A stretch of 64,000 nt of DNA from an uncultured Planctomycetaceae bacterium. GTDB taxonomy: Bacteria > Planctomycetota > Planctomycetia > Planctomycetales > Planctomycetaceae. Under the pieces are notes generated by a model. That model worked only from the letters and a program-made list of their open reading frames with translations. It searched no databases and had not been told where the DNA came from. The stretch covers positions 1,053,126 to 1,117,125 of the forward strand of contig CAWFAK010000007.1 of NCBI GenBank assembly GCA_963813715.1, given 5' to 3'. Shown here one piece after another: positions 1-64,000 of this stretch. How positions within the stretch are numbered: the first letter of the stretch is position 1; the number at the start of each line of letters is the position of its first letter. Both the position numbers and the translations under genes were made by a program.

Positions 1-2098
1 GCCCGTTCTGCTCGAGCGCTTCGACCTCAGTCAGCAACTTCGCCAGATCGTCGAGTTTCTCCCGCTGCGACGCCAGATCGATCAACAAGAGGCGGATTTG
101 CAAATTGGCCGGCTCGGCGTCGGCGACTTTCCGCCAGAGCCGCTCTGCCACATCGTAGTCGGCGACCGAGAAAGCCAGGCGGCCGATCGGGAAGAGCAGA
201 TCGAGCTGGTCGGACGCCGAGAAACCTGGCGCCTCCGCGAGGGACCGCAACTGATCGATGCGCCAACGCCGTGGCGACGGACAAGATAACCCGCCCGTGC
301 CAACCGCACAGCCACGCTGTCGCCCAGCTGCCGTTGCATCTCGCTCAAGAACCGCTCGGTGTCGTCCCACCGTTCCAGGCGCGAGGCGAGCGACGTGAGC
401 GCGGTCCACAGCCGCACGTCTTTGGGCGCCTTGTCGATCGCCGCTCGCAACGTTCGCGTTGCCGCGTCGCTTTGATCCTTGCCCAGCTCGACCTCCGCCT
501 CGAGCAGTGCGACGTCGACGGAGAACGGCTGTTTGAGAACTTCGCGCAGCTGCGCGTCGATGACTGTCCAATTCCGCTCGGCGGGGGGCTGTCCGAGCGT
601 CTTCAGAATCGTGAGCCGCAGCAATTCTGCGTCCGTGTGCGCGGGGGCATCAGGACGCTGCCGCAAGCGACGCAGCTCGACAATGGCCTCGTCGACGCGG
701 CCCTGAGCGCCAACGTGTCGGCTAGGCCGACTCGCGCGGGCGTGAATTCTGGATCGACTTCGAGTGCCGCCCGATAGGCGCCGACTGTCCAGTCCTCGCG
801 CCCGAGGCGCTATAGCACTGAGCGAGCCGCAGCTGAGCGTCCTTATAAAGCTGGGGCCAGCGTTTGAGTTCCCCTTCGACGGACTCCAGCTCGTGAGTCG
901 CTTCGGCCCATTTCGACTCGATGATGCGGATGCGCACCGTCAGATAACGGACGATCGGGCGAGCCATTTCGATCGGACGCAAGCGATCGATCAACGTCTG
1001 CGCTTGCTGAATGTCGTTCGTTTCCAGGCGCAGATTCGCCAAAGTCCACAGGAGCGCGGGAGCGCCGTCGGTCGCTTGCAGGCCGCGGCTCAAGCACTCG
1101 CACGCCTCTTTGACGCGCCGTTCGTGCAGCTCGATCGACGCCAGCACGAGATAACACTCGGCATTGGTCGGTTCTTGGCGCGTAGCCCTGTCGGCGTAGT
1201 CGCGAGCCTCTTTCACCGCGCCGGCCGCTAGTGCCGCCTGCGCACCGAGCAGCAACGCCGGGCAACTGGACGGCGCCAATCGGAGCGCCTCTTTGACGTC
1301 CGCGGCGACCGCGTTTTGCAAGGTGTCTTCGCCATGCTGCGAATCGGCGGGGCGGGGCAAAGACCCGGTGGCACCTTTCCTTGAGGCCGAACTCTGCCGG
1401 GCGACGAAGACTTGCCGGATTGACGGATCGTCTGCGTGCGCCTGCAGGAATCGCGCGCGAGTAATGTAGGCCTCGCTCTTCGCGTGGTTCTGCTTCTCGG
1501 CCACCATGTTGGCGAGCACGACGACGGCCGCCTGCCCGTCGCGGAGCCGCTCGGCAATGATCAGCGCCGACTGCTCGTAAGCCTTGATCGATCCGGGATC
1601 CTTCTTGATGGCCGTGGCGTAGGCGTCGACGGCCGGCTGCAGTTGCCCCAAGCCTGCTTGAGCGGCCCCGACCTCTGACCACAACTCGGCGTCGTCCGGA
1701 TGCGCCTTCAATAGAAATCCGAGCTGGTAGATCGCGTCCTGATAGCGTTCCGCGCGAATGGACGTGTCGACGAGCCGGCGCCGCGCCTCCTCGTTGGCGG
1801 GATCGCGGAGAATGATTTCGCCGAACCAGGCGTGCGCTTCGCCGAACTGACGATCTTCGTACAGCAGGTTCGCGAGTCGCAGCATCGCTCGCGTGTCGTC
1901 CGGCGACATTTGCAGGTAGGTGCGGAAGAATCCAGCCGCCTCCTGGCTGTTGTGGGCCTGTTTGGCGCGCTCGGCTTCGCGGAGGAAAGCCGTCGATTGG
2001 TGTCCGACCTGATAGGCGTGCAGTCCAGAAATGATGAGACCGCCGACGGCGATCGCCACCACCAAGATCAGCAAGAGTTTGCTATTCAAACGACGCAT
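1..2098 (-). CDS. Large tetratricopeptide-repeat protein with N-terminal membrane anchor (exosortase/EPS-associated); runs off the window start; apparent frameshifts near 790 and 250
   Basis: ORF 722..2098 has a hydrophobic N-terminus followed by TPR-like helices (A..Y..A+..DP patterns). TPR-like sequence continues in ORF 82..666. Confidence 0.8.
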
Positions 2099-2204
2099 GG
2101 GAAGAGTCTGCTGTCAGCTGCGAAGAGCGAGGGGACTTTGGCTGCAAAGAGCCGCGAGGGCGAAGCCGTTGACGCCGCGGTCGGCGTGCAGGTTCGCGAG
2201 CGCG

Positions 2205-3080
2205 TCACTTCCAAGAACGCAGGGCCTTCGAACCGAATCGGCACACGCCGATGACCAACAAGCAAAGTGCTGCAGCGACCGCGACAACAGCCGCGGGCGA
2301 CCGCGGCCAGGGCGTCCCCAGGTCGGGTCTCGAGAGAGGAATGTTTTGCAGGGAAGTCGATATGTCGCGATAGGTCAAAAACAGTTGAATGGGGTTGGCG
2401 AACCTCACCATCCCCACGCAGGCGAGATAGAGTGCGCCGTAGAGTGCCGATCGCTGCAGCCAGGACGTTGATCGCCGTTCGGCCCACGATGCGACCGGCT
2501 CGGCCATTCGGCAGAGTTGGGAGGTGGCTCGCTCTCCCACGGCTCGCCACAAACCGCAGCCGATCATTGCCCCGAACTCGAGCGCCAGGACATCTCGAAT
2601 CGACGGATCCCGGAGCGGAATCCAAAACTGCAGAGTCTCCGCGAGGATAGCCAGCAGTAAGCAGCCCATTGCCACTGGGATCATTTCGGTCGCGCGGGCG
2701 CACCGTTTGGGCCAGGATGTGCACCAGGCAGCCGACCACAAAAATCCGACGGGGATAAATGCCAGCACGTTGGCAAACGGGTCGAGCGGCTGCGCAGGAT
2801 CCCAACGCAACGATGCCCACACGCCCTCGAGGCGCGAGTCGAGGTCGGGAGCGGCAAAGATCCAAGGGATCGTCGAGAGATAGAGAAAACCGAGGGAAGC
2901 CAAAAGTGCAGCCGTGATATAGGCCGACTCGACCTGTCGCCAGACTCGGCCGGCGCGTTGGTCCGCGGCCTCGACGTTTTGTGCCGGCATGGATTGCGAT
3001 TCGAGCCGCCATCCTCGAGCGGCTGCCGGAACGCTCGAGGGACCGACGGTTGCGGCCGGTTCGTTCTGTGTACCTTCCAT
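2205..3080 (-). CDS. VanZ-family membrane protein
   Basis: ANVLAFIPVGFL and AETLQFWIPLRDPSIRDV match VanZ motifs. ATG at 3080 is preceded by AAGGAGG. Confidence 0.75.
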   Translation of the reverse strand: MEGTQNEPAATVGPSSVPAAARGWRLESQSMPAQNVEAADQRAGRVWRQVESAYITAALLASLGFLYLSTIPWIFAAPDLDSRLEGVWASLRWDPAQPLDPFANVLAFIPVGFLWSAAWCTSWPKRCARATEMIPVAMGCLLLAILAETLQFWIPLRDPSIRDVLALEFGAMIGCGLWRAVGERATSQLCRMAEPVASWAERRSTSWLQRSALYGALYLACVGMVRFANPIQLFLTYRDISTSLQNIPLSRPDLGTPWPRSPAAVVAVAAALCLLVIGVCRFGSKALRSWK

Positions 3081-3251
3081 GGCCTCCTTCACGCGTCGGT
3101 TCGAATAAAAATCGGCACCCAGTCGCGCCCACCGCTCCGCGTAGGCCCGACTCCGTCGTGCCCCCGCGTCCAATGTCCGGCTGCCGCTCGGTCTCACCGT
3201 GCTCGATCTTTGTTGTAATTGGCGCGCAGCATTTGCGGCAACCGACGACCA

Positions 3252-4313
3252 TTACAATGTCGCCGTGGTTTGCGCGACGACGGGCTCGACGACGCGCCAG
3301 CGGAGCGAGCGATCGACTCGGCCATCGCCCTGCAGTTGCTGGATGCGATTGATGCGGAAGTATTTCGACCCCGAGAGATCGTCTGCCGTCAGTCCGTGTT
3401 CGCGATAGGCGGCATAAATCTGTTCGACGCCGCGCACCACCGTCCAGCGGGTGCGAAACTCGGGGAAGGTGCGGGCGATTTTGTCGCAATTAACGCGATA
3501 GCAACGCGCGTCGGGTCCGCCTCCCTGGGCATAGCTGACCATGCTTCCCGGCACGGCCTGCCGGACAATCTCGGCGACGTCGCGAATGCGATAGTTTTCC
3601 TCGCTCGAGCCGACGTTGAACGCCTGGTTGTGAATCCGCTCGCGCGACGCTTCGAGGACCACCAAAAAGGCCTGAGAAATATCCGCGATGTGGACGAGCG
3701 GCCGCCAGGGAGTGCCGTCGCTTTGAATGAGCACTTGCCCTGTCGCGTGGGCGTACGCAACCAGGTTATTCACCACGACATCCAGTCGTAGCGAGGGGGA
3801 GATGCCGTACGCCGTTGCGTTCCGCATAGAGGTGGGGCTGAAACGTTCGTCGGCCAGCTCGGCCAGATCTCGCTCGACGCGGACCTTCGACTCGCCGTAG
3901 GGCGTGATCGGGTTGAAGGTGCCCTGCTCGTCGATCGGCTCGTCGCCCGCCGCGCCGTACAGACTGCATGAAGAGGAGAAAATGAAGCGTGGCACGCCAG
4001 CCGCCTTGGCGAGAAACGCCAGACGTACCGAAGCCCGATGGTTGATGTCGAAGGTGCACTTCGGATTGACGTTGCCGAGCGGATCGTTAGAGAGCGCGGC
4101 CAGATGGATGACGGCGTCGAAGCCCGCCAGGTCCGCCTGCTCGACGTCGCGGATGTCTTTCGCGATAGCGGGTATCTCTGCAACCGGGTGACCGAACGAG
4201 CACCCCTCGAACAGGCCGCTGTCGAGACCGATCACGGTGTGGCCGGCCGCCTGCAGAAAAGGCGCCATCACCGCGCCGATGTATCCACGATGCCCCGTCA
4301 ACAACACTTGCAT
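3252..4313 (-). CDS. NAD-dependent epimerase/dehydratase (extended SDR)
   Basis: TGHRGYIG Rossmann motif, [16 protein letters not shown] and the YGESK catalytic motif. Confidence 0.92.
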
Positions 4314-4369
4314 GGATCGATCCCCGCCCCCGCTCCTCGCGCGCTTGGCCTGCCTCTAAAACGATTTGT

Positions 4370-5048
4370 TCAAAGGTCGTGCCGGCCCGACGCACTCAGC
4401 ACGGCCTTGCGGCAATAAAAGGCCTCGGCGTAGCGGCTGGGCGAGTTGGCTTCCATCCCCCGCAGGCGCAACACGGCTCGGAACGTTTGCTCGTCGAACC
4501 ACGATTTTGACCGCTGCGAGGCGAAGCACTCAAGCAGGATGGCGATTTTCCGCTGACAGATCGCGTCGGCGATCGGCACGAACACGTTCGGCTGGCCGAA
4601 GTCGCCGTCGTATTTGGGAATCTCGTATTCCAGAATCAGGTGGTCGCGGAATGTGTTCCAGGTCAAATCCGAAATCAGCCGATGGTCCTGGTGACGGTCG
4701 TCGCGGAAGTGGGTGAAGATGACGTCCGGCTGAAATTCGAGCTTGAGCGACTCGAACTCGTCCTTGATGGCCGCGCCGACGAATGGAAAAAATCCGTCGC
4801 GATAATTCTCAAGCGTCACTTTTTTCTGACAAGCGTTTGCCAGGAAGGCGGCCGCGCTGGCTTGAGCCTCGCGCGATCGCTCTTCACTCGCGCTCGAAGA
4901 CGACCCAGCGGATGTCGATCTGCCGATTGCTCTCCAAGAGCGACAGGACCGTGCCACCGCAGCCGATTTCGATATCGTCGCTGTGCGCCGCCAGGCAGAG
5001 CACCTTGAGCGGTGCGTCCCCCGGATTTAGCAGTGGCAGTGTGAGCAC
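4370..5048 (-). CDS. PIG-L/LmbE family deacetylase (apparent frameshift near 4895)
   Basis: The N-terminal frame reads VLCLAAHSDDIEIGCGGT. The downstream frame has DDRHQDH, YEIPKYDGD and FASQ...AEAF. Confidence 0.88.
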
Positions 5049-5074
5049 AGCCGTGTTTCCCGTGCGCCGCGCGG

Positions 5075-6766
5075 TCAGCGCCGCGCCTCTTCGTAGATCG
5101 CCTGCACCGCCGCGTTCTCACGCGTGCCGAACCAACCGCGAAACATCAAGATGTCGCCCCGCCGGACGGCGTCGAGCAGGTCGGCCCGGCGTTCGACGAT
5201 CGGTCCGTCCGCCACGTTGATCACGCTGAACGCGCCGGGATAAGCCAGCCGGTCGCGCTCGGACGTCGATGCGATGCCGCCGCGCAATTCGCGATAGCCG
5301 CTCAGATGAGAGTAGTAGCCCGCGTACTGAAACTCCGGGATGATCAGCACGTCGGGAAACTGGCGGGCGAGCCGCCGCATCTGCTCGGCCCGCACGAACC
5401 AGTTGTCGACCTGCTCCTTCTTGCCCGCACCGTTGCCGGCCAGGGCCAGCGTCACGTTGGTGTCGACATAAAACAGGGTGCAGCCCCAACGACGTTTGGC
5501 GTAGGCGATCTTGCCGGCCATTTCGGTCACGGGATCGAAGCCCATGAAGTCGTGCCGCCAGGGAGTTGTGGCTTGTTGTCGGACGATTCGCGACGGGCGA
5601 ATGCAAATCCCCGTCTTGAGGCCGGCGTCGGAAAACAGTTTAAATACCTCGTCGGCGATCGTGTCCATTTCGGGAGCGAGCTGCGGCAGCTTTCGCGGAT
5701 CGCCGACGAAAACCAGCGGTGGATACTCTTCGCCTTCGACATCCCAGACGATCACTCCCTGCGCACCCCGCAGCTCGCACTGCTCGAGGCATCGCCGGGC
5801 TCGCTGTCGCAGGAGCTGGTTCTTGAAGTTCTCTTGTCCGTCGGCCGTCGTCACATCGACGCGAGGGTCGTTGAGCCAGCCGCGAGGGTTCGTCGACGAG
5901 TGGTGCTGAGGGGCCGAGCTGGCGAGCATCAACATGGCGATCGGACGGCGGTCCGGCCAGTTGAGCACGCGGGGCGAGCGCTCGCGGAATTTCGCGAAGA
6001 CGTCGCCGGCCAGATCGGCCAGTCCCGCAGGCGGCGGCCCGAAGCGGAGTGAGATCGCGATGCGGACCGACTTCCCCGGATCCAATCGGCAACCGTCGAC
6101 GTGCACGAAATCGGACGTCTGTTTGCTGAGCGTGCCGACCATCAGGTTGTAACCCGGATTGACCGTCTCAAAATCTTTTTCGAGCTGCAGGCGAAATTCC
6201 GAGTCGAGGTTGGTGCCCACGCCGACGAGCGTCCCGCGGCCGTAGTGGGCGATGATGGCCGCCACGTCGTCGACGGCGTCGGACGTTGTGTGCAGGTCGT
6301 TATCCCAGCCGGGGCCGGTCGGCGTGATGGGAAACGCCAGATCGAGCACGTTCATGTCGAGCGCTCGAATCTGTCGCTCGCCGCGGTTCGTAAAGGTGAT
6401 ATCGAGATTCAGGCGATTCGTGCTCTCGTGATAGACGCACGTAATTTGCCCCTGGCTCCAGTTCTGCACGAGCGTGAGGGATTGCGGATCGAACGACGTA
6501 GTAGGCATGGCACTGCCCGGCACATCGTCAACGTCGCCGGACTCCCAGACCACATGCCGCAGACGAGGTTGGCCTTTTTTGAGCAGCTGCGTGCCCGCAT
6601 ATGTCAGCGAGACCAGACCGGCGTCTTGAAAGCCGGCAACCAGTCCATCGGCCGCGCAGGCCTTCGCCGCGAAGCTGGAGCAAAATGTCCCGCAGCAAAG
6701 CGCCGCGACGACCAGGGCCAGCGGCCCGCGCGATCGTCGTCGGCTCAAGGAAAGAGGTCTTCGCAC
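5075..6766 (-). CDS. Secreted hypothetical protein, possibly carbohydrate-active
   Basis: 563-aa ORF with a signal-peptide-like N-terminus, co-oriented and tightly packed within the operon. Confidence 0.7.
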   Translation of the reverse strand: MRRPLSLSRRRSRGPLALVVAALCCGTFCSSFAAKACAADGLVAGFQDAGLVSLTYAGTQLLKKGQPRLRHVVWESGDVDDVPGSAMPTTSFDPQSLTLVQNWSQGQITCVYHESTNRLNLDITFTNRGERQIRALDMNVLDLAFPITPTGPGWDNDLHTTSDAVDDVAAIIAHYGRGTLVGVGTNLDSEFRLQLEKDFETVNPGYNLMVGTLSKQTSDFVHVDGCRLDPGKSVRIAISLRFGPPPAGLADLAGDVFAKFRERSPRVLNWPDRRPIAMLMLASSAPQHHSSTNPRGWLNDPRVDVTTADGQENFKNQLLRQRARRCLEQCELRGAQGVIVWDVEGEEYPPLVFVGDPRKLPQLAPEMDTIADEVFKLFSDAGLKTGICIRPSRIVRQQATTPWRHDFMGFDPVTEMAGKIAYAKRRWGCTLFYVDTNVTLALAGNGAGKKEQVDNWFVRAEQMRRLARQFPDVLIIPEFQYAGYYSHLSGYRELRGGIASTSERDRLAYPGAFSVINVADGPIVERRADLLDAVRRGDILMFRGWFGTRENAAVQAIYEEARR

Positions 6767-52327: not shown

Positions 52328-52411
52328 ACGATGTTGTGATGGCCGGCCTCCGACCCCGGACCCGGCCGCCTAGGCGGGCACTCCCGGGACCACCGCCTGT
52401 CGCCCATTCGA

Positions 52412-52824
52412 TCCCGTCCCGACTCTCAAGTCCCCGTGTCCCGTCCCGATTGAGTCCCGTCCCCCCGAGATGAGTCCGGTCCCGACTACCCCCGACCGAC
52501 CTAGTGCCCGTGCCGCCTCGCCGTCCCAATGATTAAGTCCCGTCCCAATGTTCGAGTCCCATCCCAATCCAATCCCGTCCCAACTTGTCCCGTCCCCCCT
52601 GAGAGGGGAAAAACCGGCCAACCAAGATCAATAAGTCCAGCAGCAATCAGGAGTTCCGATCTCCCTTGGTGCCTTCGTGTCTTCGTGGGGAAAAAATCCG
52701 TCCTCCGCGATCGGATGAATTCCACCGAAGCAGTCCCCGTCCTCAATGTTCCCGTCCCACCGTTCGAGTCCCCTCCCCGCCGTTCGTGTCCCGTCCAATC
52801 CCGTCCCGACTTTGTCCTGTTCCC
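52412..52824. repeat. Two clusters of co-oriented TCCCGTCCC motifs
   Basis: Exact copies at 52412, 52439, 52455, 52538, 52573, 52588, 52750 and 52799. Near copies at 52475, 52557, 52734, 52769, 52789 and 52815. Confidence 0.85.
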
Positions 52825-53222
52825 GGTCCGAGGAGATCTCGAACGGGCGCGGACACAAACGAACCGCCTCCAAAACGCTCAGTCCACGCGCCGCGTGGCG
52901 GTCCTAACCCCGGAGCGGCAGCCGGCCACACGCACAGGTGTAGGCCGAGTGGCTCAATTTGGTGCGGCGCCACGGCGCGCCCAACCTCTATTTTACCCCG
53001 TGCCGTATTGACGCAAGATCAGCTTGTGGCGTCGTGTCTTCCGTTGGGATTGCGCTGACATCGAGCGCGCTTCGGGTTAGTGGTTCCGACCGTCGCCTCG
53101 CCCCGCCAAATCGCGATTGAGCCGAATCGTCCGATGGGCTATCACTCGCCTTCCCTCCGTGGCAGCTCTCCCCTGCCGCACGCATCACTTCCCGCGACGT
53201 TCCCCGTCCGTTCGAGATCCCA

Positions 53223-54292: not shown

Positions 54293-55237
54293 ATGCTCCA
54301 TCGTGTTCGCGCTTTCACCCGTGCCCGAGCTTTCACATTGTTTGTTCCCACGGCAGCCGCGCTGACGGCCAGTCTCGTGCTCGCTTCCTCCGCGGCGGCG
54401 GCCGAGCCGGCCGGAGACATCGTCCAAGAACACAACATTGTCTACGGCAAAGGCGGCTCGGAGGACTTGATCCTCGACCTGGCGCGGCCGGCGCAGGCGT
54501 CGGGGCTCGTGCCGGGCATCGTGTACATACACGGCGGCGGCTGGCGCGGCGGCTCGCGCAATTCGTATCACAACGAAGTTCAAGAAGCGGCCCGCCGCGG
54601 CTACGTCGCAGTAACGGTCGACTACCGCCTCACTCAGCCCGACGCAGAGGGCAAGGCGAAATACCCGTTCCCCGCGCAGCTCGAGGACGTCAAATGTGCC
54701 GTCCGCTGGCTGCGGGCCAACGCCGACAAGTATCACGTCGATCCCAAGCGAATCGGGGCGACGGGCGAATCGGCGGGCGGGCACCTGGTGCTGTTGCTGG
54801 CCGTCACCGGCGACAACAAGCAGTTCGAGGGGACGGGCGGCAACCCGGACGTGTCGAGCCAGGTGCAGGCGGTCGTCAACTGGTTCGGCCCGACCGACCT
54901 CGCGCGGATGTACGGCTACAACAAAGCCGTCGACCCGCTGCTCTCGGCGCTCTGCGGCGGCACGCCTCAGGAGCGACCCGACCAGTACAAGGCGACCAGC
55001 CCGGTGACCTACGTGACGAAAGACACGTGCCCGGTGTTGACGCTGCACGGCACGGCCGACAAGCTCGTCCCCGTCGACCAGGCGAGCGAGTTCGACGCGG
55101 CCATGAAGAAAGCCGGCGCGACCAGCGTGGTGATGATCATCCAGGGCAACGGTCACGGTTTCGGCGGCAAAGTTCGTCGCCAAGCCGACGACGACACGTT
55201 CGCGTTCTTCGAGCAACACCTGAAGCAGGGTAAGTAA
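54293..55237 (+). CDS. Secreted alpha/beta hydrolase (HSL-type esterase)
   Basis: Signal peptide, HGGGW oxyanion motif, GESAGG nucleophile, HGTADKLV and GHG. Confidence 0.9.
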   Translation: MLHRVRAFTRARAFTLFVPTAAALTASLVLASSAAAAEPAGDIVQEHNIVYGKGGSEDLILDLARPAQASGLVPGIVYIHGGGWRGGSRNSYHNEVQEAARRGYVAVTVDYRLTQPDAEGKAKYPFPAQLEDVKCAVRWLRANADKYHVDPKRIGATGESAGGHLVLLLAVTGDNKQFEGTGGNPDVSSQVQAVVNWFGPTDLARMYGYNKAVDPLLSALCGGTPQERPDQYKATSPVTYVTKDTCPVLTLHGTADKLVPVDQASEFDAAMKKAGATSVVMIIQGNGHGFGGKVRRQADDDTFAFFEQHLKQGK

Positions 55238-55270: not shown

Positions 55271-55292
55271 CTCGGTCCCAAGCTCCCCCTTG
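55271..55292. repeat. REP-like hairpin fragment carrying the target duplication of IS copy 1
   Basis: CTCGGTCC-CAAGCTCCCCCTTG. The last 14 bp are the exact reverse complement of 62809-62822. Confidence 0.85.
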
Positions 55293-56476
55293 AGGGTGTC
55301 CGGGAATTGAATTGAGCTAAACCCAAGGGCCTCCGGGCGTTTATGTTTTTTCTGCCAAGAAGAAACTAAACGCCGCAGGAGGGCCCAAGGATGGGAACTC
55401 GTGCCAAGGCCGGCACGTCGTTGGAAGCGTTGGTCAAGCTGGCGATGCCGCTTTTGAGGGAAGCCGAGCGGCAATGTCCGAGAACAGGGCCGGGAGCAAA
55501 GCCGATCATTCCGGACTGGTTCGTTGGAGTGTTGATTATGGTGGCTGTGCTGAAACGAAAGAAGACCAAGTCCGCCCAATTTCGTTTCGTAACCGACAGC
55601 GCGAACCGGCACAGATTCGAGACCTCACCGGAGAAAAGCAGTTTCCCTCGCGAAGCACGTTTTTCAGTCGGTATCGACGCTGTCATCGGCTCTTTACGGA
55701 GGCCATCAAGCGGCAAGGGCAGCAAGCGATCGCGGAGCAGATCGTCGACGCCAGCCAGGTCGCGGTGGACAAGAGCCTGGTTCCCGCCCGAGGTCGTCCG
55801 TGGCACAAGCACGAAAAGGAAAAGGGGAAGATTCCCCGGGGTGTGGATCGCGAGGCGGCGTGGGGCTACTCCGAACATCACGGCTGGGTCTACGGCTACA
55901 GCTTCGAGGTGGTGGTCTCTTGCAAGCGGAAAAACACGGTGTTTCCGCTGCTGGCTTCGGTGGGAACCGGGAGCGCCGCGGAGGTGCGAACGTTCGCGGA
56001 AAAAATTGACCATTTACCGCGTGAAGTGAAATGCGTCTCAGTGGATAGCGCCTACGACGCAGGTTACCTCGGTGAGCGCATCGAATTTGATCAGGCAGGG
56101 CGGCGGACAGGGCGTCGCTTCTTGTGTCCCGAAAATCCCCGCTACCCTCGCAAAAAGACCAAGCGCTGCGGGGCCGACGCGGCGCGGGCCCACAGCCGCG
56201 AGCTGCGACGAGCCAGAAAGAAGTACTTCGAGAGCGCCGCCGGGCGACGCCTCTATCGACGGCGCAGCCGCACGGTCGAGCCCTTCAACAGCTGGTTGAA
56301 GTCACTCTTCGAACTGGACACGCGTGCGTGGCATCGCGGACTCGTCAACAACCAAACTCAGAATCCTTGCCGCCATCTTCGTGTATCAATTGCTTGTGCG
56401 CTACAACCACCGCTGCGGAAACAACAACGGACGACTTCGTTGGCTCACCGATGCCCTCTGAATTCCCGGACACCCT
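55293..56476 (+). mobile_element. DDE insertion sequence, copy 1 (IS5/IS982/IS1182-like DDE_Tnp_1 clan)
   Basis: Perfect 16-bp TIRs AGGGTGTCCGGGAATT (55293-55308) and its reverse complement (56461-56476). Near-identical inverted copy at 62823-64000. Confidence 0.92.
55391..56461 (+). CDS. DDE transposase (apparent indels near 55610 and 56362)
   Basis: VAVDKS (D), VDSAYD (D), YRRRSRTVEPFNSWLK (E) and WGYSEHHGWVYGY. Confidence 0.88.
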
Positions 56477-56496
56477 CAAGCAGAGCTTGGGACCAA
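56477..56496. repeat. REP-like hairpin fragment of the same family (second target site)
   Basis: CAAGCAGAGCTTGGGACC. Its first 16 bp are the reverse complement of 62700-62714-type CCCAAGCTCTGCTTG. Confidence 0.8.
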
Positions 56497-56523
56497 GAAA
56501 ATCAAAACACTGGCGGACGAGCC

Positions 56524-57852
56524 CACAACTGTCCGGTTAAAAGTCGAAGAGACACAGTTGGTTATGACAAGTGGTTGCCGGGTTTGGAACGGTCTGCTCG
56601 TTTAGCGCTTTAACTAAAGGGGTTTTCTCGAAAAGAGTGACACTCAGAATCTGCAAGATTTCGTAAAGGCTGCGCTGGATCTGGAGTTCGCGTTTCATGA
56701 TCGCCACCAGCACGTAGGTGCTCACCGCGATCCAGAGTTGAGTCTTCACGGCATTGGGTGTGTTCCCCAAGAAGTGCTTGATCCGCAGATGTTGCTTGAC
56801 CCACTTGAAGAACAGTTCGATTCCCCAGCGTCGCCGATACAGTTCGGCGACGGTCCACGCGGGAAGTTCGAAGTGATTGGTGACGAAGGTCAACCGGCGG
56901 CCGGTCTCCAGGTTCAAGTAACGGATCCGACGCAATCGATCGGGATACTTGCGTCGCGTGCGGTGATCCTTGAGAAGCACCGTCTGGTCGCTGCGCAGTC
57001 CCGTCGAGCGGTCCACCATACGCGAGGCCTGCCGGCGGACTGTCAGGTTGCACTTCGCGCGCACCAAAAAGAAGGCCCCCGCGCAGTGGATGCGATGCAG
57101 CCGTCGATAGTCGTTGTAGTCGCGGTCCATCAGATAGAAGGAGCCGGGTTCGATCGGCAGATCGTCCAGCAGAGCGCAGTCCCGCGTTTTTGTGCTGGAA
57201 ACCCGCAGAAAACAGGGAATGTTTCCCCGCAGATCCAACAGCGTGTGGAGTTTGATGCCAGCCTTTTGCCTCTGCGAGTGGGCCCACGGAAACAGCTTCA
57301 GACACAGCTCGATCACGGTCGCGTCGAGCGCATAGGCGGTGTGCTTCAGCTCGATGCCAAGATCGTCGGCCGCGTACAAGGGCCGCGCCCGCTCGATGAG
57401 GGCCAGCCCCAAGTCGCGATAGATTTGCCAGTCGCGCGTTCGGTTGGCGTCGGCCAGGGTGCTGCGCCGATCGCCCCGCGAAACCCGGCGTGGTAAAGCT
57501 TGTCGCTGACGGCCCGCAGACGAATCTCCAGGTCGCGAAGGCTCTCGCGTCCGGTCAGCTGCGCGAACGCCATGGCCAGAAACTGATCGCGACACGAGAA
57601 ACCTCGGACCCGCCGATGTCCTTGATATCGTCTCACGCACGAATCGAAAATCCGCCGCGGGAGAAACTCGAGCAGCTGCGGAAACACCATCTGACCCTCG
57701 TACATGACCTGCCTCCCTCCTGCTGGAATCAGCAGAAAGGATGGTCTCGAAAGCCATCGCAGCTGAAGTCGTGCGCCGCCTGGATCGACGATGAAACTCA
57801 GAATTCATGCGTATTTGCGTCGTGAGAGACTGTCGTTAACCGGACAGTTGTG
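56524..57852 (-). mobile_element. IS4-family insertion sequence with 9-bp TSD
   Basis: 17-bp perfect TIRs CACAACTGTCCGGTTAA (56524-56540 and 57836-57852). Direct repeat GGACGAGCC at 56515-56523 and 57853-57861. Confidence 0.95.
56537..57705 (-). CDS. IS4-family transposase (DUF4372-type N-terminus); apparent frameshift near 57470
   Basis: AFAQLTGRESLRD, ALDATVI, GIKLH, MDRDY and the YREK signature YRRRWGIELFFKWVKQHL. Confidence 0.92.
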
Positions 57853-57907
57853 GGACGAGCCGCCAGTGCCACTCGTGCCTGAAGCCGGCCCCCACTCCAA
57901 TCCGGGA

Positions 57908-57936
57908 TTGACCGAAAGCGGCCGGAAAAGGATCAT
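57908..57936 (+). promoter_or_regulatory. Possible sigma70 promoter of the LPS core operon
   Basis: TTGACC, 17-bp spacer, GATCAT; about 170 bp upstream of hldE. Confidence 0.35.
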
Positions 57937-58100
57937 TTCACTCGCGCTAATCGGCAAAGTCTCGGCCGAAAATCGCCCAACGCGCCCGATTGTCGCAAAG
58001 CTCACACTTGGAACCCGATCAAACCTGGAACCGGCCGGCTCACACCGGCCGCTCGCCTTCGGGGGGCAACGGACGCCTCCCGCAGTGATACCGCAAGGGA

Positions 58101-59626
58101 ATGCGGGCCGTGTCTTATCATTTGATTGATCTCGTCCAGAACCTGGGCCGTCCGCGGATCCTGGTGCTGGGCGATCTGATTCTCGATCGCTACACCTGGG
58201 GCGACGCCGAGCGCATCAGCCAGGAAGCCCCTGTGATTCTGCTCCGCGAGCGCAGCCGCGAGGTGCGCCTGGGCGGAGCGGCGAACGTCGCCAACATGCT
58301 CCGCGGCCTGGAGGCCGACGTGAGCCTGGCCGGCGTGGTCGGCAACGATGCCGACGGCCGCGAGCTGCGAGACGAACTCGAGCGGCAAGGCGTCGATTGC
58401 GCGTCGGTGATCGTCGACCCCGAGCGGCCGACCACGATGAAGGAACGCTTCATCGGCCCGCGCAGCAGCGGCATCCGCATCAGATTCTTCGCGTCGACCG
58501 CGAAGTCCGCCGCCCGCTGCCTGAGCCGGTGGCCGAGCATCTTATTCAATCGCTGCTGGCGACACTGTCGTCACACCAGGCCGTGCTCATTTCCGATTAT
58601 GGCAAAGGCGTGTGCACGCCCGAGGTCTGCCGCCGGCTTATTGCCGCGGCGCGACAAGCGGGGCTGCCGGTGATTGTCGATCCTTCGTCATCGGGGGACT
58701 GCCGGAACTTCGCCGGCGCCACGGCCGTCACGCCCAACCGCATGGAAACCAAGCGGGCGACGGGGCGCGAGATCGCGAAAATCGACGACGCGATCGCCGC
58801 CGGCCGCCGGCTCTGCGCGGACCTGGGGCTCGATCACGCGTTTATCACCCTCGACAGCGACGGTATCGTCGTGGCGCGAGCGGACGGCTCGGCCGAGCAT
58901 CTGGCCACGCGAAAGCGCGAGGTGTACGACATCACGGGCGCCGGCGACATGGTGCTGGCGATGATCGGCGTCGGCGCGGCGGCGGGCATCGCGCCCTTCG
59001 ATCTGGCGCGGTTGGCCAACGTGGCCGGCGGCCTGGAGGTCGAGCAGGTGGGTGTGGTGCCGATTCGTCGCGACGATCTGCTCGCCGATCTCTTCACGGC
59101 AGAGCGGCCGACGGCCGACAAAATCTGCTCGCTCGACGTGCTGGAGCGGCACGTGGCCGCTCGGCGGCGAATGGGCAACCGCATCGTGCTGACGAATGGT
59201 TGCTTCGACCTGCTCCACGTCGGTCATGTGAGCTACCTGCAAGAGGCGGCCCGCGAAGGGGACTGCCTGATCGTCGCCGTCAACAGCGACGCCAGCGTCC
59301 GCCAGCTCGGCAAGGGGCCCGATCGGCCCGTCTTCGCTGAGCAGCAGCGGGCCGCCATGCTGGCCGCGCTCGAGGCCGTCGACTACGTGACCATCTTCGG
59401 AGAGGCGACGCCCCACGCGATTCTGACCCGCTTGAAGCCCGATCTGCTCGTCAAAGGCGGCGGCTACGCGTCGCACGAAATCGTCGGTCACGAGCTGGTC
59501 GAAGCGTACGGCGGACAAGTGAAGGCGCTCGGGCACGTGCCGGGAATCTCGAGCACGATCGTCCTCGAACAACTGCGGAATTCCAAAGACCCGACCTCCA
59601 GCGAGTCCGGAAGGCAGGCCGCATGA
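58101..59626 (+). CDS. hldE: Bifunctional heptose-7-P kinase / heptose-1-P adenylyltransferase (apparent frameshift near 58460)
   Basis: GDLILDRY, RISQEAPV, GGAANVA, SDYGKG and DITGAGD; C-terminal TNGCFDLLHVGH and VKGG. Confidence 0.93.
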
Positions 59627-60669
59627 AAATCGCCCTCTTCCTCCCCAATTGGATTGGCGACGCCGTGATGGCGACGCCGGCCCTGCGGGCGCTGCGGGCG
59701 AAATTTCAAGATGCGGAAATCGTCGGCGTGCTGCGACCACCCATCGGCGACGCGCTCGCCGGACTCAATCACTTCGATCGTATCCTCGAGCATCAGCCGC
59801 ACGGTACGGCCGCCGACGCCCGCGGCTGGCGATTCGTACGACGACTGAAGAGTGAGCAATTCGACTTGGCCGTGCTGTTTCCCAATTCGTTGCGGAGTGC
59901 CGTTGTGGCCCGGCTGGCCGGGATCAAGCGGCGCGTCGGCTTCGCCCGCGACGGTCGACGTTACCTGCTCACCGACGCGCTCGAGCCCAAGCCGCGGGCC
60001 GTTCCGAATCCGGTGCTCGACGAATATCTGCGACTGGCTGGCCATCTCGACTGCGACGTCCGCAACCGGGCGACGCAGGCGGCCGTGCTTCCCGAAGATG
60101 AGCGCGAGCTGGCCCGCTTCTGGAAACCGCATCCGGCCGACTTTCCCACGCGCGGCGTCTTTTGCCTCAATCCGGGCGGAGCGTTCGGGGCGGCCAAGCA
60201 CTGGCCGACGGAAAACTTCGCCGACCTGGCGCGGAGCATCGTCGACCATCTGGGGCGAACTGTATTGGTACTGTGCGGCCCGGCCGAGCGGGAAGAAGCG
60301 CGGAACATCGTCCACCTGGCCTCGCGCGAGCGGGTCGTCAGCCTGGCGGACTTTCGCACGAGCATCGGCCTCACCAAGGCGGCCATTCGCTCAGCCGAAA
60401 TGCTGGTGACGACCGACTCCGGCCCGCGGCACTTCGCCCAGCCGTTCGGCGTGCCCGTGGTAACGATCTTCGGCCCCACGCATCAAAAATGGAGCGACAC
60501 GAACGACGCCCACGCCGTCCATTTGCAAATCCAGGTCGAGTGCGGCCCTTGCCAGCGGCGGACCTGCCCGCTCGGGCATCACCGCTGCATGCAGGACCTG
60601 TCGAGCGAATGGGCCTTCGACGCCGTGATCGCCCAGCTCCTGCGGCACCGCCGGCCCATCGCCGCCTGA
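59623..60669 (+). CDS. waaF: LPS heptosyltransferase II (GT9)
   Basis: PNWIGDAVM, NPGGAFGAAKHWP, TDSGPRH, FGPT and CPLGHHRCM. Confidence 0.9.
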   Translation: MKIALFLPNWIGDAVMATPALRALRAKFQDAEIVGVLRPPIGDALAGLNHFDRILEHQPHGTAADARGWRFVRRLKSEQFDLAVLFPNSLRSAVVARLAGIKRRVGFARDGRRYLLTDALEPKPRAVPNPVLDEYLRLAGHLDCDVRNRATQAAVLPEDERELARFWKPHPADFPTRGVFCLNPGGAFGAAKHWPTENFADLARSIVDHLGRTVLVLCGPAEREEARNIVHLASRERVVSLADFRTSIGLTKAAIRSAEMLVTTDSGPRHFAQPFGVPVVTIFGPTHQKWSDTNDAHAVHLQIQVECGPCQRRTCPLGHHRCMQDLSSEWAFDAVIAQLLRHRRPIAA

Positions 60670-60707
60670 CACATCACACGACCGTAATCCGAAACGAGAA
60701 ACCTCCG

Positions 60708-61855
60708 ATGCGCATCGCCCTAGTGAAACGCCGTTATTCGCTGAAAGTCGGAGGGGCCGAACGCTATTGCGTGAACCTGGCCCGCCGGCTCCGCACATAC
60801 GGCCACGATGTCACCTTCATCGGCGAGTCGATCGATCCCGAGCTGTCGAGCGAAGTCAACTTCGTGCCGATCACGGTCAATCGGCTCACGTCGTGGACCA
60901 AGAATCAGTCGTTCGCCGAAAACACCGGGCGGGCGGTGAAGGAAGGGCGGTTCGACCTGGCCTACGGACTGGGGCGGGCCTTCGAGCTGGACGCCATCCG
61001 CATCACCGACCGGCTGCAGTCGCACTGGCTCAACGTCTATTACCGCAATCCGGCCCACCGCGCGTTGCAAAGGCTCAACCCGCGGCATCGCACGATGATC
61101 GCGCTCGAGCGAACGATTTTTCACTCGTCGAACGTGCGGCGGATCGTCACGCAATCGCGGCTCGATCGCGAGCTGGTCGTCCGCTATTACGGCATTCCCG
61201 AGGAAAAAGTCTGCACGATCTATAACGGCGTCGATCTCAACGTCTTTCATCCGGGCGTGCGGGCCGACCGGAACGATCTGCGGGCCGAGCTGGGCGTCGA
61301 GCCGACGCGGCCGCTCTTGGTGTTCGCCTCGATGGACTTTCAGGGCAAGGGGCTGCGGTCGCTATTGCGGGCCTCGCCATCGCCCGCTCGACACGCGCAT
61401 TGCGGCTGGCCGTCGTCGGCAAGGGGCCCATCTGGCGATTCCGCCGCATGGCCCGGGCACTCGGCGTGGAGGAATCGGTCCTCTTCGTCGGCCACCGCTG
61501 CGACATTCATCGCTTCTACGGCGCGGCCGACCTGTCGCTGATGCCCACCACCTACGAGCCCTTCCCGAACGTGAATCTCGAATCGCTGGCCTGCGGCACG
61601 CCCGCGCTCACCACGTCGACAGCCGGCGGCGCCGACCTGATCGAGGACGGCAAGACGGGCTACCTCGTCTCGAACGTCCACGCGATCGAAGAGATTGCCG
61701 AGCGGATCGACGGATATTTTTCGCTGAGCTCGGCCGAGCGGGCCGTGATGTCGGCTGCCTGCTGGGACAAGGCCCAACAGATGACAGTGGAGAAAAACGC
61801 CCGCGAGACATGCGAGCTGTTCGAAGAGGTGCTGCGTGAAAAGTTTCGCGTTTGA
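60708..61855 (+). CDS. Glycosyltransferase family 4, WaaG-like (apparent frameshift near 61372)
   Basis: GGAERY, IYNGVD and PTTYEPFPNVNLESLACG. Confidence 0.88.
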
Positions 61856-62659
61856 CGGCTGGGACGGCGGACGCCTGACCGTCAATCGCGAGTTCGCCCC
61901 TCTGCTGACGCAGCATGCGTTGACGACGTTCGACGCCATCGCCAACTTCGCCGGGGGCCGCGTCGCCAAAAACGTCCTCCGCGAGCGGACGACCACGCGG
62001 CTCGACCTGGCCGACGGCAACGGCGCGTCGCGCACACTCTATTTAAAACGGCACCAGCGGCCCAGCGCGTGGGAGCTGGTGAAGCCGCTGTTCCGCTTGG
62101 CGCGGCCTATCGTCGGCGCCCGCAACGAGTGGGAGGCCATTCTGCGCTTCCACGAGAGCGGCATCGCCACGATGGTCCCCGTCGCGCTGGGCGAGTCGGG
62201 CAGCCGCTCATTTCTCGTGACGCAAGGCATCGAAGACTGCGAGAAGCTCACGGCCTGGATGCAGGCGCATCGGCATGCGCTACATAACGGCCAGCTCGCC
62301 GCGCTGCGCGACATCGTCGCCGGCGTGGCCGACGTGGCCCGCACGATGCACGCGGCTGGACTGCATCACCAGGATTTTTATCTCACGCATCTGATGGTGC
62401 CGCAACGCGGCCCGGCCGCTCCGATCCACGTGCTCGATCTGGGCCGGGTCCGTTTTCAGCCGCGGCTGGCCCGCCGCTGGATCGTGAAGGACCTGGCGCA
62501 GCTCAACTTCTCGGCCGCCGGCGTCTCGGCCAGCGACCGGCTGCGATTTCTCGGCGCTACCTCGGCCACCGACCAACGCGCAACGACCGCGCACTCGTGA
62601 CGCGGATTGTGCGCAAGTCCCGCGCTATCGCCCGCCACACGCAAAAGAACGGCCTCTGA
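61836..62659 (+). CDS. Lipopolysaccharide kinase (WaaP/InaA/Kdo family); apparent frameshift near 62555
   Basis: LYLKRH, ARNEW, HQDFYLTH, LDLGR and KDLAQL. Confidence 0.88.
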
Positions 62660-62693
62660 GCAGCCGCGCGGCTGGCGCGCGTCATTCGACTCT

Positions 62694-62822
62694 CTCGGAC
62701 CCAAGCTCTGCTTGGGACCGCACGTCCTCGAAGCTTCCGCTTCGATTCTTCTCGCTTCCGAACTCACTGGCTTCGCCACCGACGCAGAGCTTCGGGTAGG
62801 TGCGGCCCCAAGGGGGAGCTTG
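62694..62822. repeat. Composite REP/REPIN-like inverted repeat, truncated by IS copy 2
   Basis: Left arm CTCGGACCCAAGCTCTGCTTGGGACCGCAC...CGAAGCTTCCGCTTCG. Right arm CGACGCAGAGCTTCG...GTGCGGCCCCAAGGGGGAGCTTG. Confidence 0.85.
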
Positions 62823-64000
62823 AGGGTGTCCGGGAATTCAGAGGGCATCGGTGAGCCAACGAAGTCGTCCGTTGTTGTTTCCGCAGCGGTGGTTGTAGCG
62901 CACAAGCAATTGATACACGAAGATGGCGGCAAGGATCTGAGTTTGGTTGTTGACGAGTCCGCGATGCCACGCACGCGTGTCCAGTTCGAAGAGTGACTTC
63001 AACCAGCTGTTGAAGGGCTCGACCGTGCGGCTGCGCCGTCGATAGAGGCGTCGCCCGGCGGCGCTCTCGAAGTACTTCTTTCTGGCTCGTCGCAGCTCGC
63101 GGCTGTGGGCCCGCGCCGCGTCGGCCCCGCAGCGCTTGGTCTTTTTGCGAGGGTAGCGGGGATTTTCGGGACACAAGAAGCGACGCCCTGTCCGCCGCCC
63201 TGCCTGATCAAATTCGATGCGCTCACCGAGGTAACCTGCGTCGTAGGCGCTATCCACTGAGACGCATTTCACTTCACGCGGTAAATGGTCAATTTTTTCC
63301 GCGAACGTTCGCACCTCCGCGGCGCTCCCGGTTCCCACCGAAGCCAGCAGCGGAAACACCGTGTTTTTCCGCTTGCAAGAGACCACCACCTCGAAGCTGT
63401 AGCCGTAGACCCAGCCGTGATGTTCGGAGTAGCCCCACGCCGCCTCGCGATCCACACCCCGGGGAATCTTCCCCTTTTCCTTTTCGTGCTTGTGCCACGG
63501 ACGACCTCGGGCGGGAACCAGGCTCTTGTCCACCGCGACCTGGCTGGCGTCGACGATCTGCTCCGCGATCGCTTGCTGCCCTTGCCGCTTGATGGCCTCC
63601 GTAAAGAGCCGATGACAGCGTCGATACCGACTGAAAAACGTGCTTCGCGAGGGAAACTGCTTTTCTCCGGTGAGGTCTCGAATCTGGCCGGTTCGCGCTG
63701 TCGGTTACGAAACGAAATTGGGCGGACTTGGTCTTCTTTCGTTTCAGCACAGCCACCATAATCAACACTCCAACGAACCAGTCCGGAATGATCGGCTTTG
63801 CTCCCGGCCCTGTTCTCGGACATTGCCGCTCGGCTTCCCTCAAAAGCGGCATCGCCAGCTTGACCAACGCTTCCAACGACGTGCCGGCCTTGGCACGAGT
63901 TCCCATCCTTGGGCCCTCCTGCGGCGTTTAGTTTCTTCTTGGCAGAAAAAACGTCAACGCCCGGAGGCCCTGGGTTTAGCTCAATTCAATTCCCGGACAC
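62823..64000 (-). mobile_element. DDE insertion sequence, copy 2 (inverted; last ~3 bp beyond the window)
   Basis: TIR at 62823-62838 and AATTCCCGGACAC at the window end; nearly identical to 55293-56476. Confidence 0.92.
62838..63906 (-). CDS. DDE transposase, copy 2 (apparent indel near 63685)
   Basis: Same protein as copy 1; intact C-terminus QILAAIFVYQLL...WLTDAL. Confidence 0.88.

Follow-up and report, generated by a model that had tools for sequence, protein, structure and literature searches.

Swaps of target duplications between copies of one insertion sequence (IS) are already in print, for IS26 and for the REP-targeting ISRm22. In Sinorhizobium meliloti 1021, ISRm22, an element with a DDE transposase of the Transposase_11 type, is described with all of its copies in REP sequences and some of them between unmatched direct repeats; these hybrid repeats were explained by recombination between copies (Tobes and Pareja 2006, PMC1525189). 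For IS26, intramolecular transposition in trans is reported to leave inverted copies of the element, and the same short repeat in inverted orientation, around an inverted segment (He et al. 2015, PMC4471558). Chromosomal inversions bounded by copies of one IS are also described from the E. coli long-term evolution experiment, where about 70% of the large rearrangements were attributed to IS-IS recombination (Raeside et al. 2014, PMC4173774). The target sites have a precedent as well. REP doublets, or BIMEs, are short palindromic intergenic repeats arranged in inverted pairs, which have also been reported from Planctomycetes and are known targets of ISs (Di Nocera et al. 2013, PMC3733652).

The locus described here resembles these systems in the features just named. 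It lies in the window, a stretch of 64,000 nucleotides from an uncultured Planctomycetaceae bacterium, in which two inverted copies of an IS enclose an operon for the core of the lipopolysaccharide (LPS). We consider it fairly likely that the inversion of this operon exists as a real molecule; the rearrangement is probably ordinary and harmless.

Swapped target duplications and the ancestral gene order

The left neighbour of the inverted block, itself outside it, is an alpha/beta-hydrolase gene on the plus strand (54326..55237; BD-FAE esterase-like, PF20434, E 6.6e-60). It is followed by the left stub of a REP-like doublet, doublet A (55271..55291, plus strand), whose last 12 bp are the target AAGCTCCCCCTT (55280-55291), and by IS copy 1 (1186 bp, 55292..56477, plus strand) with ends GAGGGTGTCCGGGAATT and AATTCCCGGACACCCTC and a DDE transposase at 55391-56461. 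On the far side of copy 1 lies the left stub of a second doublet, doublet B, in inverted orientation (56478..56514, minus strand), with its 11-bp target AAGCTCTGCTT at 56478-56488 (minus strand). The remainder of doublet A is found only after the operon, again inverted (62694..62821, minus strand), and the 12-bp target recurs at its end (62810-62821). IS copy 2 follows in inverted orientation (62822..64000, minus strand). Its last 4 bases are missing, since base 64000 is the final base of contig C7, which terminates inside this copy. Over 1186 bp the two copies, on opposite strands, are 99.6% identical and differ by three indels and by two substitutions near the contig end. The 6344-bp block between them holds an IS4-family element and the genes hldE, waaF, a GT4 glycosyltransferase and a kinase.

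The original prediction of a reciprocal swap started from the flanks of copy 1, which indeed do not match each other: the right flank reads CAAGCAGAGCTTG, and the left flank CAAGCTCCCCCTTG (55279-55292) is the reverse complement of 62809-62822. Counted on both strands, the 7.49-Mb genome holds its 12-bp core AAGCTCCCCCTT only three times: to the left of copy 1, on the inner side of copy 2, and on contig C12 at the corresponding site; hence the match of the target halves is not due to chance. The duplications are shorter than the 14 and 13 bp first proposed. Short relatives sitting at non-palindromic sites show that the element's own ends are GAGGG...CCCTC, which rules out the longer reading, places the IS at 55292-56477 and leaves duplications of 12 and 11 bp. 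The swap is plainly present in the assembly for target A, which is divided between the outer end of copy 1 and the inner end of copy 2. For target B the inner half is present and fits the empty site on contig C12 and on metagenome contig L188, and the outer half lies past the contig end. What adjoins copy 2 on its outer side is a prediction.

Rejoining the two parts of doublet A was expected to restore a complete inverted repeat of about 137 bp. The length and the long hairpin hold (137 bp, −43.8 kcal/mol, z −7.6 against 200 shuffles, DNA parameters), but the repeat is imperfect: ungapped pairing covers 12 of the first 13 positions and 28 of the first 52. The inner 1329-bp IS4-family element (56524..57852, minus strand), with its 9-bp duplication GGACGAGCC at 56515-56523 and 57853-57861, was not mentioned in the original prediction.

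The reconstructed site A, free of the IS, exists in nature. We searched runs X1-X4, contig sets from four studies (24 candidate runs, short-word contigs, best share 0.62). Joints were discounted as repeats or as other organisms if one side was shorter than 35 letters, or if they fell within the IS4 element or linked REP arms. One of the four runs (X2) joins 55278 to 62822 on opposite strands, with 14 letters compatible with both sides. A metagenome contig, L192, carries the same empty site with 183 of 199 positions matching. In this empty allele the left stub of doublet A (55271-55291) runs on into 62809 and downward.

For doublet B, the hairpin predicted beyond copy 2 is found as an intact site adjoining nrdR on C12. 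Positions 1-6180 of C12 are the reverse complement of 57853-64000 of the window at 94.6% identity overall and belong to a second strain; beyond this match come the intact doublet B and then nrdR. It is not a poorly polished duplicate of the window, because the changes are biased towards synonymous ones (42 synonymous and 4 nonsynonymous in the GT4 gene). Rejoined with 57853-57990, the doublet B stub agrees with C12 in 170 of 174 positions and with L188 in 172 of 175. Both contigs also carry the empty site of the inner IS4 element.

Gene order in relatives points the same way. hldE adjoins nrdR in all nine, and esterase and kinase converge in the four that have the esterase in view, as had been anticipated. 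The uninverted order and both empty sites are therefore seen directly, in C12, run X2, L192, L188 and the relatives, which supports the gene order of the window as the derived state, with the two IS copies as its breakpoints.

Assembly error, recombination or transposition

Swapped duplications at a contig end in an assembly of mixed strains are by themselves no proof of an inversion. One could argue that the strain is in fact uninverted and carries two inverted IS copies, and that the assembler left copy 1 through the wrong flank. The path would then run from the esterase through copy 1 into the flank of the other copy, backwards along the block, and stop at the second IS end. Such a path would also have to stop inside copy 2, where C7 ends and at the very IS base where C12 starts, although the contig end is equally well explained if the contig of the second strain took nrdR. 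The assembly has many indel errors, and strain haplotypes overlap at contig ends (four long duplications at 93–95%). Haplotyping errors and chimeras are described as common in long-read metagenome assemblies (bioRxiv 10.1101/2025.04.22.649783). Three of four short-read contigs that carry a whole IS have unmatched flanks; hence this repeat does shuffle flanks in assemblies, but that figure rests on short reads, which are unable to span the element. The assembly itself appears to be built from long reads, judging by its indel pattern and contig sizes, and for long reads a repeat of only 1.2 kb is short. Moreover, the two other complete copies in the genome both have matched 11-bp duplications, so the assembler crossed this repeat correctly twice.

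Other IS families of the assembly served as a partly usable control, from which three FAM0 copies and the FAM6 ends were left out (not parsed). Matched flanks were found in four of five copies for FAM3, and in four of five for FAM0 over only 4 bp; FAM5 has inverted flanks and no duplication. One of the five copies tested in one of these families has hybrid flanks and is a second such case, which counts against a real inversion.

A contig joining the esterase, the IS and the doublet B stub was absent from all four short-read runs and from the 22 loci at IS ends, and in those runs no contig bridged a complete IS together with unique sequence on its two sides. The pattern of the esterase-side junction had no match in the metagenome collection; since L192 has one different base at that junction, such a result does not show absence. 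Taken together, we regard a mis-join as possible but clearly less probable than a real inversion.

If the inversion is real, the most plausible history begins with two insertions. A REP-targeting DDE IS would have inserted twice, in opposite orientations, into the REP-like hairpin doublets that flank the native operon: doublet A between esterase and kinase and doublet B between hldE and nrdR. Each insertion would have copied the hairpin core at its target, of 12 and 11 bp. The nearly identical inverted copies may then have recombined homologously, flipping the 6344 bp in one strain, so that each copy came to lie between a target of site A and a target of site B. Independent insertions come easily here: the IS occupies the partner hairpin within doublet A on L192, and the partner hairpin within doublet B on L188. 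We infer the order of events and the RecA-type recombination, and for this scenario as a whole we see the chances as evenly balanced.

The swap fits recombination and a one-step intramolecular transposition alike. The copy in doublet A could have attacked doublet B in inverting orientation, making copy 2 and the inversion together in the manner of IS26, a reaction described to yield exactly such inverted matched repeats (PMC4471558). In their substitutions, copies 1 and 2 show a common haplotype, distinct from the copies on C14, C5 and C10, and no uninverted intermediate with two copies was seen. However, the IS of the window has matched duplications (both other copies in the genome, and contig L186), unlike IS26 in that study (PMC4471558), which points to simple insertion, the normal behaviour of this IS. 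Both doublets have also been struck independently in other samples. We know of no replicative mechanism for this transposase group, which further counts against a single step, and we consider such a step unlikely.

The operon and its orientation

All four genes of the operon lie on the plus strand of the window. They encode an hldE-like bifunctional heptose kinase/adenylyltransferase (58101..59626; NF008454 415 bits, below the cut-off of 521, scored on the intact C12 copy), a waaF-like heptosyltransferase II (59623..60669; TIGR02195 156.5 bits, cut-off 134.6), a GT4 glycosyltransferase (60708..61855; PF13439 and PF13692) and a Kdo/WaaP-family LPS kinase (61836..62659; PF06293, and NF011703 at 137 bits, below the cut-off of 170). 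Several frames are broken. The break in hldE at 58458 and that in the kinase at 62552 are probably sequencing errors, with an extra base in three of four and in all four runs, respectively. The frameshifts in the transposase of copy 1 look like errors too (compensating indels at 55610/55611 and 56362 in the short-read contigs of all four runs). The short-read contigs restore these frames, so that pseudogene readings of hldE, kinase and transposase can be discarded. Near 61372 the GT4 frame is interrupted by an indel, which C12 lacks.

The inversion cuts no gene. A sigma-70-like promoter motif, TTGACC-N17-GATCAT (57908..57936, plus strand), a match to the consensus only, lies upstream of hldE within the inverted block and is present in all 12 loci examined. 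Operon, promoter-like site and IS4 element would flip together, and whichever way it lies, the block is bordered on both sides by the same 1.2 kb, an IS read from its right end. For these reasons the event was probably neutral, with no effect on the operon, as far as can be judged from the sequence.

It had been suggested that the block may still flip, or that it may be mobile as a composite transposon. With nearly identical copies in inverted orientation, re-inversion always has a substrate at hand, and the genes carried have to do with the cell surface; both points favour a functional device such as a reversible switch of LPS-core expression. In phase-variable invertible switches of the shufflon or fimS type, a promoter or a piece of coding sequence is repositioned with respect to the target gene, and a dedicated site-specific recombinase acts at short crossover sites. 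In and at the block only DDE transposases were found, in a search confined to the block and its edges; the block contains no invertase or recombinase gene. The promoter-like site is inside the block and travels with the operon; flipping is therefore not an evident on/off switch, and there is no evidence that it is meaningful.

He et al. (PMC4471558) point out that a segment bracketed in this way could in principle behave like a composite transposon, and the block is indeed cargo between two copies of one IS. Nevertheless, it lacks one direct duplication around the whole unit, its outer flanks being two different targets, and its cargo is not foreign: it sits at its native place, syntenic in nine of nine relatives, and the sole second copy is the allele of the other strain. 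A functional device of either kind is highly improbable.

The bracketing element among known systems

The bracketing IS has the general traits of IS4-like elements: a DDE triad (candidate residues D127, D219 and E297, all conserved), a single ORF (an intact frame of 355 aa in the C14 copy), terminal inverted repeats (17 bp, perfect) and a duplication near 10 bp (11–12 bp). The signature of the IS4 family is Y-(2)-R-(3)-E-(6)-K (PMC2266710). Among 120 homologues the conserved residues are Y289, R292, E297 and K304, that is Y-(2)-R-(4)-E-(6)-K, which departs from that signature, and no IS4 model matched. The IS1182 model NF033551 reached 54 bits against a cut-off of 270, over the C-terminal part only, and the IS982 model NF033520 reached 31 bits against 130. 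Judged by these NCBIfam models and the signature, the element appears to lie outside the curated families. The inner element, in contrast, is an IS4-family member (NF033592, 215.8 bits against 115; terminal inverted repeats; 9-bp duplication). It is present in a single copy in the assembly and sits in a second type of REP hairpin, CACTGGC-N7-11-GCCAGTG, with 120 matches in the genome.

The transposase belongs to a group of about 356 aa with at least 1616 clusters at E≤1e-30. In 150 genomes of the family, mostly short-read ones, no relative was found at E≤1e-60, a search too strict to be informative, and a plasmid search gave one weak match. The IS variant on C12 is about 86% identical to its best full-length match among all retrieved copies. 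With 89 of its 157 changes at third positions, it is suggested to be a real isoform.

The target preference is seen directly. All 46 junctions of the IS lie directly after REP hairpins of the form CCC-AAG-N5..7-CTT (49 motif matches in all, of which three were assigned to other elements and left out). Insertion thus falls at a fixed position in the REP consensus, type 1 of Tobes and Pareja. The length of the duplication appears to follow the hairpin loop. Tentatively, these observations may be combined into one picture, which we hold to be rather unlikely. An unclassified clade of DDE transposases of about 356 aa would recognise a REP hairpin by two half-sites, with a cut 5′ of AAG on either strand and a stagger that stretches with the loop (11, 12 and perhaps 13 bp), and short relatives with the same ends would make 8-bp duplications at unstructured sites. 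The block would be bracketed repeatedly, as a live polymorphism of two orientations in soil populations. In the literature outside subscription journals and ISfinder we found nothing on palindrome-targeting ISs of Planctomycetes with target duplications, which does not imply that they are absent from print.

As an inversion the case is of small importance, a well-controlled example of a textbook kind of event from an uncultured soil bacterium. Of more use is that the REP doublets flanking a core operon of the cell envelope serve as insertion hot spots. Four hairpins around the LPS-core block have been struck, in different samples, and the operon is therefore prone to inversion, or to deletion if copies land in direct orientation. 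The remaining interest lies in the bracketing IS, which appears to have no curated family and whose duplication length, apparently set by the hairpin, is relevant to the way in which DDE transposases recognise palindromic targets.

Compared with the described systems, our locus differs in the following ways. Most inversions of the E. coli experiment are large, and mapping and PCR confirmed them (PMC4173774); ours measures 6.3 kb, was recovered from a soil metagenome bin and is known from an assembly. Our REP doublets are likened to those of Di Nocera et al. (PMC3733652) by general form rather than by membership of a named family such as GTAG or CGTC. IS26 is an IS6-family element that transposes replicatively, studied on plasmids with 8-bp repeats and without matched duplications in that work (PMC4471558), whereas the bracketing IS has matched duplications elsewhere and takes hairpins as targets. 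ISRm22, finally, is filed as IS4 and has 6-bp repeats (PMC1525189). The bracketing IS makes duplications of 11–12 bp, has G...C ends and carries Y-(2)-R-(4)-E-(6)-K, and in contrast to the ISRm22 case both partners of the swap and both empty sites can be traced.

Gene order around the inverted block

The bracketing IS is present in the window as two inverted copies, at 55292-56477 (copy 1) and 62822-64000 (copy 2). They are 99.6% identical and differ by three indels and two substitutions, the substitutions lying near the contig end. As the original prediction held, copy 1 has on its left a flank that reappears, reverse-complemented, as the inner flank of copy 2. The 12-bp core of this flank occurs three times genome-wide, every time at site A, the doublet of REP-like hairpins between the esterase and kinase genes (site B is the doublet between hldE and nrdR). 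Rejoining the flanks had been predicted to give a complete inverted repeat of about 137 bp; the 137-bp piece does fold (z -7.6), but the repeat is imperfect.

Our comparisons indicate that the window order is derived. Contig C12 of the same bin aligns over positions 1-6180 to the opposite strand of window 57853-64000, with 94.6% identity. Because the differences are mostly synonymous (42 of 46 in the GT4 gene, 17 of 23 in hldE), C12 represents a second strain's allele of the block. Its order runs IS, doublet A, kinase, GT4, waaF, hldE, empty IS4 site, intact doublet B, nrdR. The comparison with relatives points the same way: hldE adjoins nrdR in all nine same-genus genomes compared, and in the four where the esterase is in view it converges on the kinase, as anticipated. 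In four of the other five the neighbours within the stretch compared are different, and in one the contig stops before the kinase. The predicted empty site A is found in one of four public short-read runs, where one contig runs from 55278 directly into 62822 on the other strand, 14 letters at the joint fitting either side. Metagenome contig L192 agrees with the empty site A built in silico at 183 of 199 positions; on the B side, L188 agrees with the reconstruction at 172 of 175.

In locus L023 of G002, nrdR is split at its 3' end by some 1.1 kb of DNA that looks foreign (3760-4860). A variant copy of the gene end comes after this DNA, which resembles what is left of an element that integrated into nrdR.

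The two copies enclose a block of 6344 bp, and "LPS core-like" is a fair label for its genes. The hldE-like gene contains both domains and scores 415 bits (cut-off 521), the waaF-like gene scores above its cut-off, the GT4 glycosyltransferase is placed at family level, and the kinase is of the Kdo/WaaP family, under the RfaP cut-off. An IS4-family element of 1329 bp (56524-57852) sits about 250 bp upstream of hldE. Its 9-bp duplication falls within the loop of another type of REP hairpin, CACTGGC-N7-11-GCCAGTG, to which the genome has 120 matches. Since C12 and L188 lack this element, it is a recent strain-specific insertion.

The original idea of a composite transposon carrying the operon found no support. 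Neither did an on/off switch: a sigma-70-like motif that precedes hldE by 164 bases lies inside the block and is present in all 12 loci examined, the inversion cuts no gene, and the IS right ends face the block from both sides in whichever orientation. What changes is only which gene lies far upstream, the esterase or nrdR, in either case beyond 1.2 kb of IS.

Real inversion or assembly mis-join

We consider the inverted form probably real, with an assembly mis-join as a serious alternative. Bin G000 (7.49 Mb, 18 contigs, 82.6% complete) has frequent single-base indels that short-read contigs correct, which suggests a long-read assembly, and haplotype chimeras are described as frequent in long-read metagenome assemblies (bioRxiv 10.1101/2025.04.22.649783). 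The public runs that match the bin best are soil metagenomes. The window (G000:C7:1053126-1117125) terminates at the final base of contig C7, which halts within copy 2 at the base where C12 begins. This would suit a mis-join, although a contig end is equally expected if the second-strain contig took nrdR. An artefact is also favoured by overlapping haplotypes in the bin, by unmatched flanks in three of the four short-read contigs with a whole IS, and by another IS family here, in which one copy in five is a hybrid. However, the repeat is short (1.2 kb), the assembler crossed the other two complete IS copies correctly, and both stretches that the join connects, one on the esterase side and one on the IS4 side, occur once in the assembly. 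The new junction was unspanned in four short-read runs, a metagenome pattern search and 22 IS-end loci.

Elsewhere in G000, the start of C9, the end of C10 and the start of C13 overlap over 4.7-8.6 kb at 93-94% identity, a further sign of several strains; C13 carries the empty site of an IS copy on C10. One FAM3 copy (G000:C8:69254-70808; FAM3 is a 1512-bp IS with 11-bp duplications in GGGAC repeats) has flanks that are inverted, not direct, and none of the copies tested is its reciprocal partner. It is a second hybrid, either real or mis-joined.

Ends and targets of the bracketing IS

The intact transposase (355 aa) matches PF01609 and PF13751 and conserves D127, D219 and E297, with the motif Y-(2)-R-(4)-E-(6)-K. 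It reached no NCBIfam IS cut-off (IS1182, 54 of 270 bits; IS982, 31 of 130 bits), and it is off the IS4 signature, as outlined in PMC2266710, by one residue of spacing. At least 1616 of 8000 candidates scored are unnamed relatives. Planctomycetaceae or Pirellulales stands in the title of most records in which this element end occurs, so a planctomycete host is probable.

Forty short elements share the terminal motif. Just outside the boundary first proposed, nearly all of them have a G at the left end and a C at the right end, and in elements such as L122 and L077 an 8-bp duplication lies, by eye, outside this pair. The pair therefore belongs to the IS itself, which runs GAGGG...CCCTC over 1186 bp. 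Its duplication measures 12 bp at site A and is one base shorter, 11 bp, at site B, which revises the ends and duplication lengths originally given. MITE-like elements (L064-L178, mostly 120-160 bp) share the GAGGGTGTCCGGGAATT ends and are common in Planctomycetota-titled records; they have mostly 8-bp duplications in AT-rich sites, and some have REP-like interiors.

We examined 49 end-motif junctions from the bin, two relatives and 22 metagenome loci. A script called 45 hairpin sites, L181 was added by eye, and three belong to other elements. All 46 junctions of the bracketing IS, which are not independent as some sites recur, lie in CCC-AAG-N5..7-CTT-GGG-like hairpins; REPs have been noted in Planctomycetes (PMC3733652). 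The spacing is mostly 11 bp, proven from two sides at C14, C5 and L186, and the C14 and C5 copies both have exact 11-bp direct repeats. It is 12 bp at site A (proven by both filled sides and the empty allele) and at two other sites, and 13 bp at one, on one-sided evidence. All four hairpins around the block have been struck, in different samples: A-proximal in C7 and C12, A-distal in L192, B-proximal in C7 and B-distal in L188. The C12 copy, an 86% variant in the same hairpin and orientation, is either an independent insertion or a recombination replacement.

Each of at least four IS types in the genome seems to use a short palindromic repeat of its own. FAM0, a 983-bp IS on several contigs, has 4-bp duplications and occupies a repeat of a third type (CCCGAAGCGTGAGCGAGGG). 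Short GTCCC/GGGAC repeats, the FAM3 target type, cluster upstream of rpsB (52390-52825). FAM5 (a 1357-bp element at G000:C7:320763-322141 and four further copies) sits between the arms of an inverted repeat and lacks a direct duplication, which recalls the IR-replacing mode that has been reported for IS1272.

Mechanism and known systems

Should the inversion be real, we would favour recombination between two inverted insertions that arose independently, because the bracketing IS gives matched duplications in other places and each doublet is a hot spot in its own right. One-step intramolecular transposition would leave the same pattern and is less favoured; papers on either route describe it (PMC4471558, PMC1525189, PMC11708052), and the haplotype shared by copies 1 and 2 is compatible with both.

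Inversions between IS copies are reported as common in experimental evolution (PMC4173774). Swapped duplications around inverted copies have already been described for IS26, and hybrid repeats of a REP-targeting DDE element for ISRm22. The inversion would thus be a further case of a known kind of event. The part worth following is the unclassified hairpin-targeting IS, which differs in mechanism from IS1272, described as targeting inverted repeats without duplication (PMC5678879).
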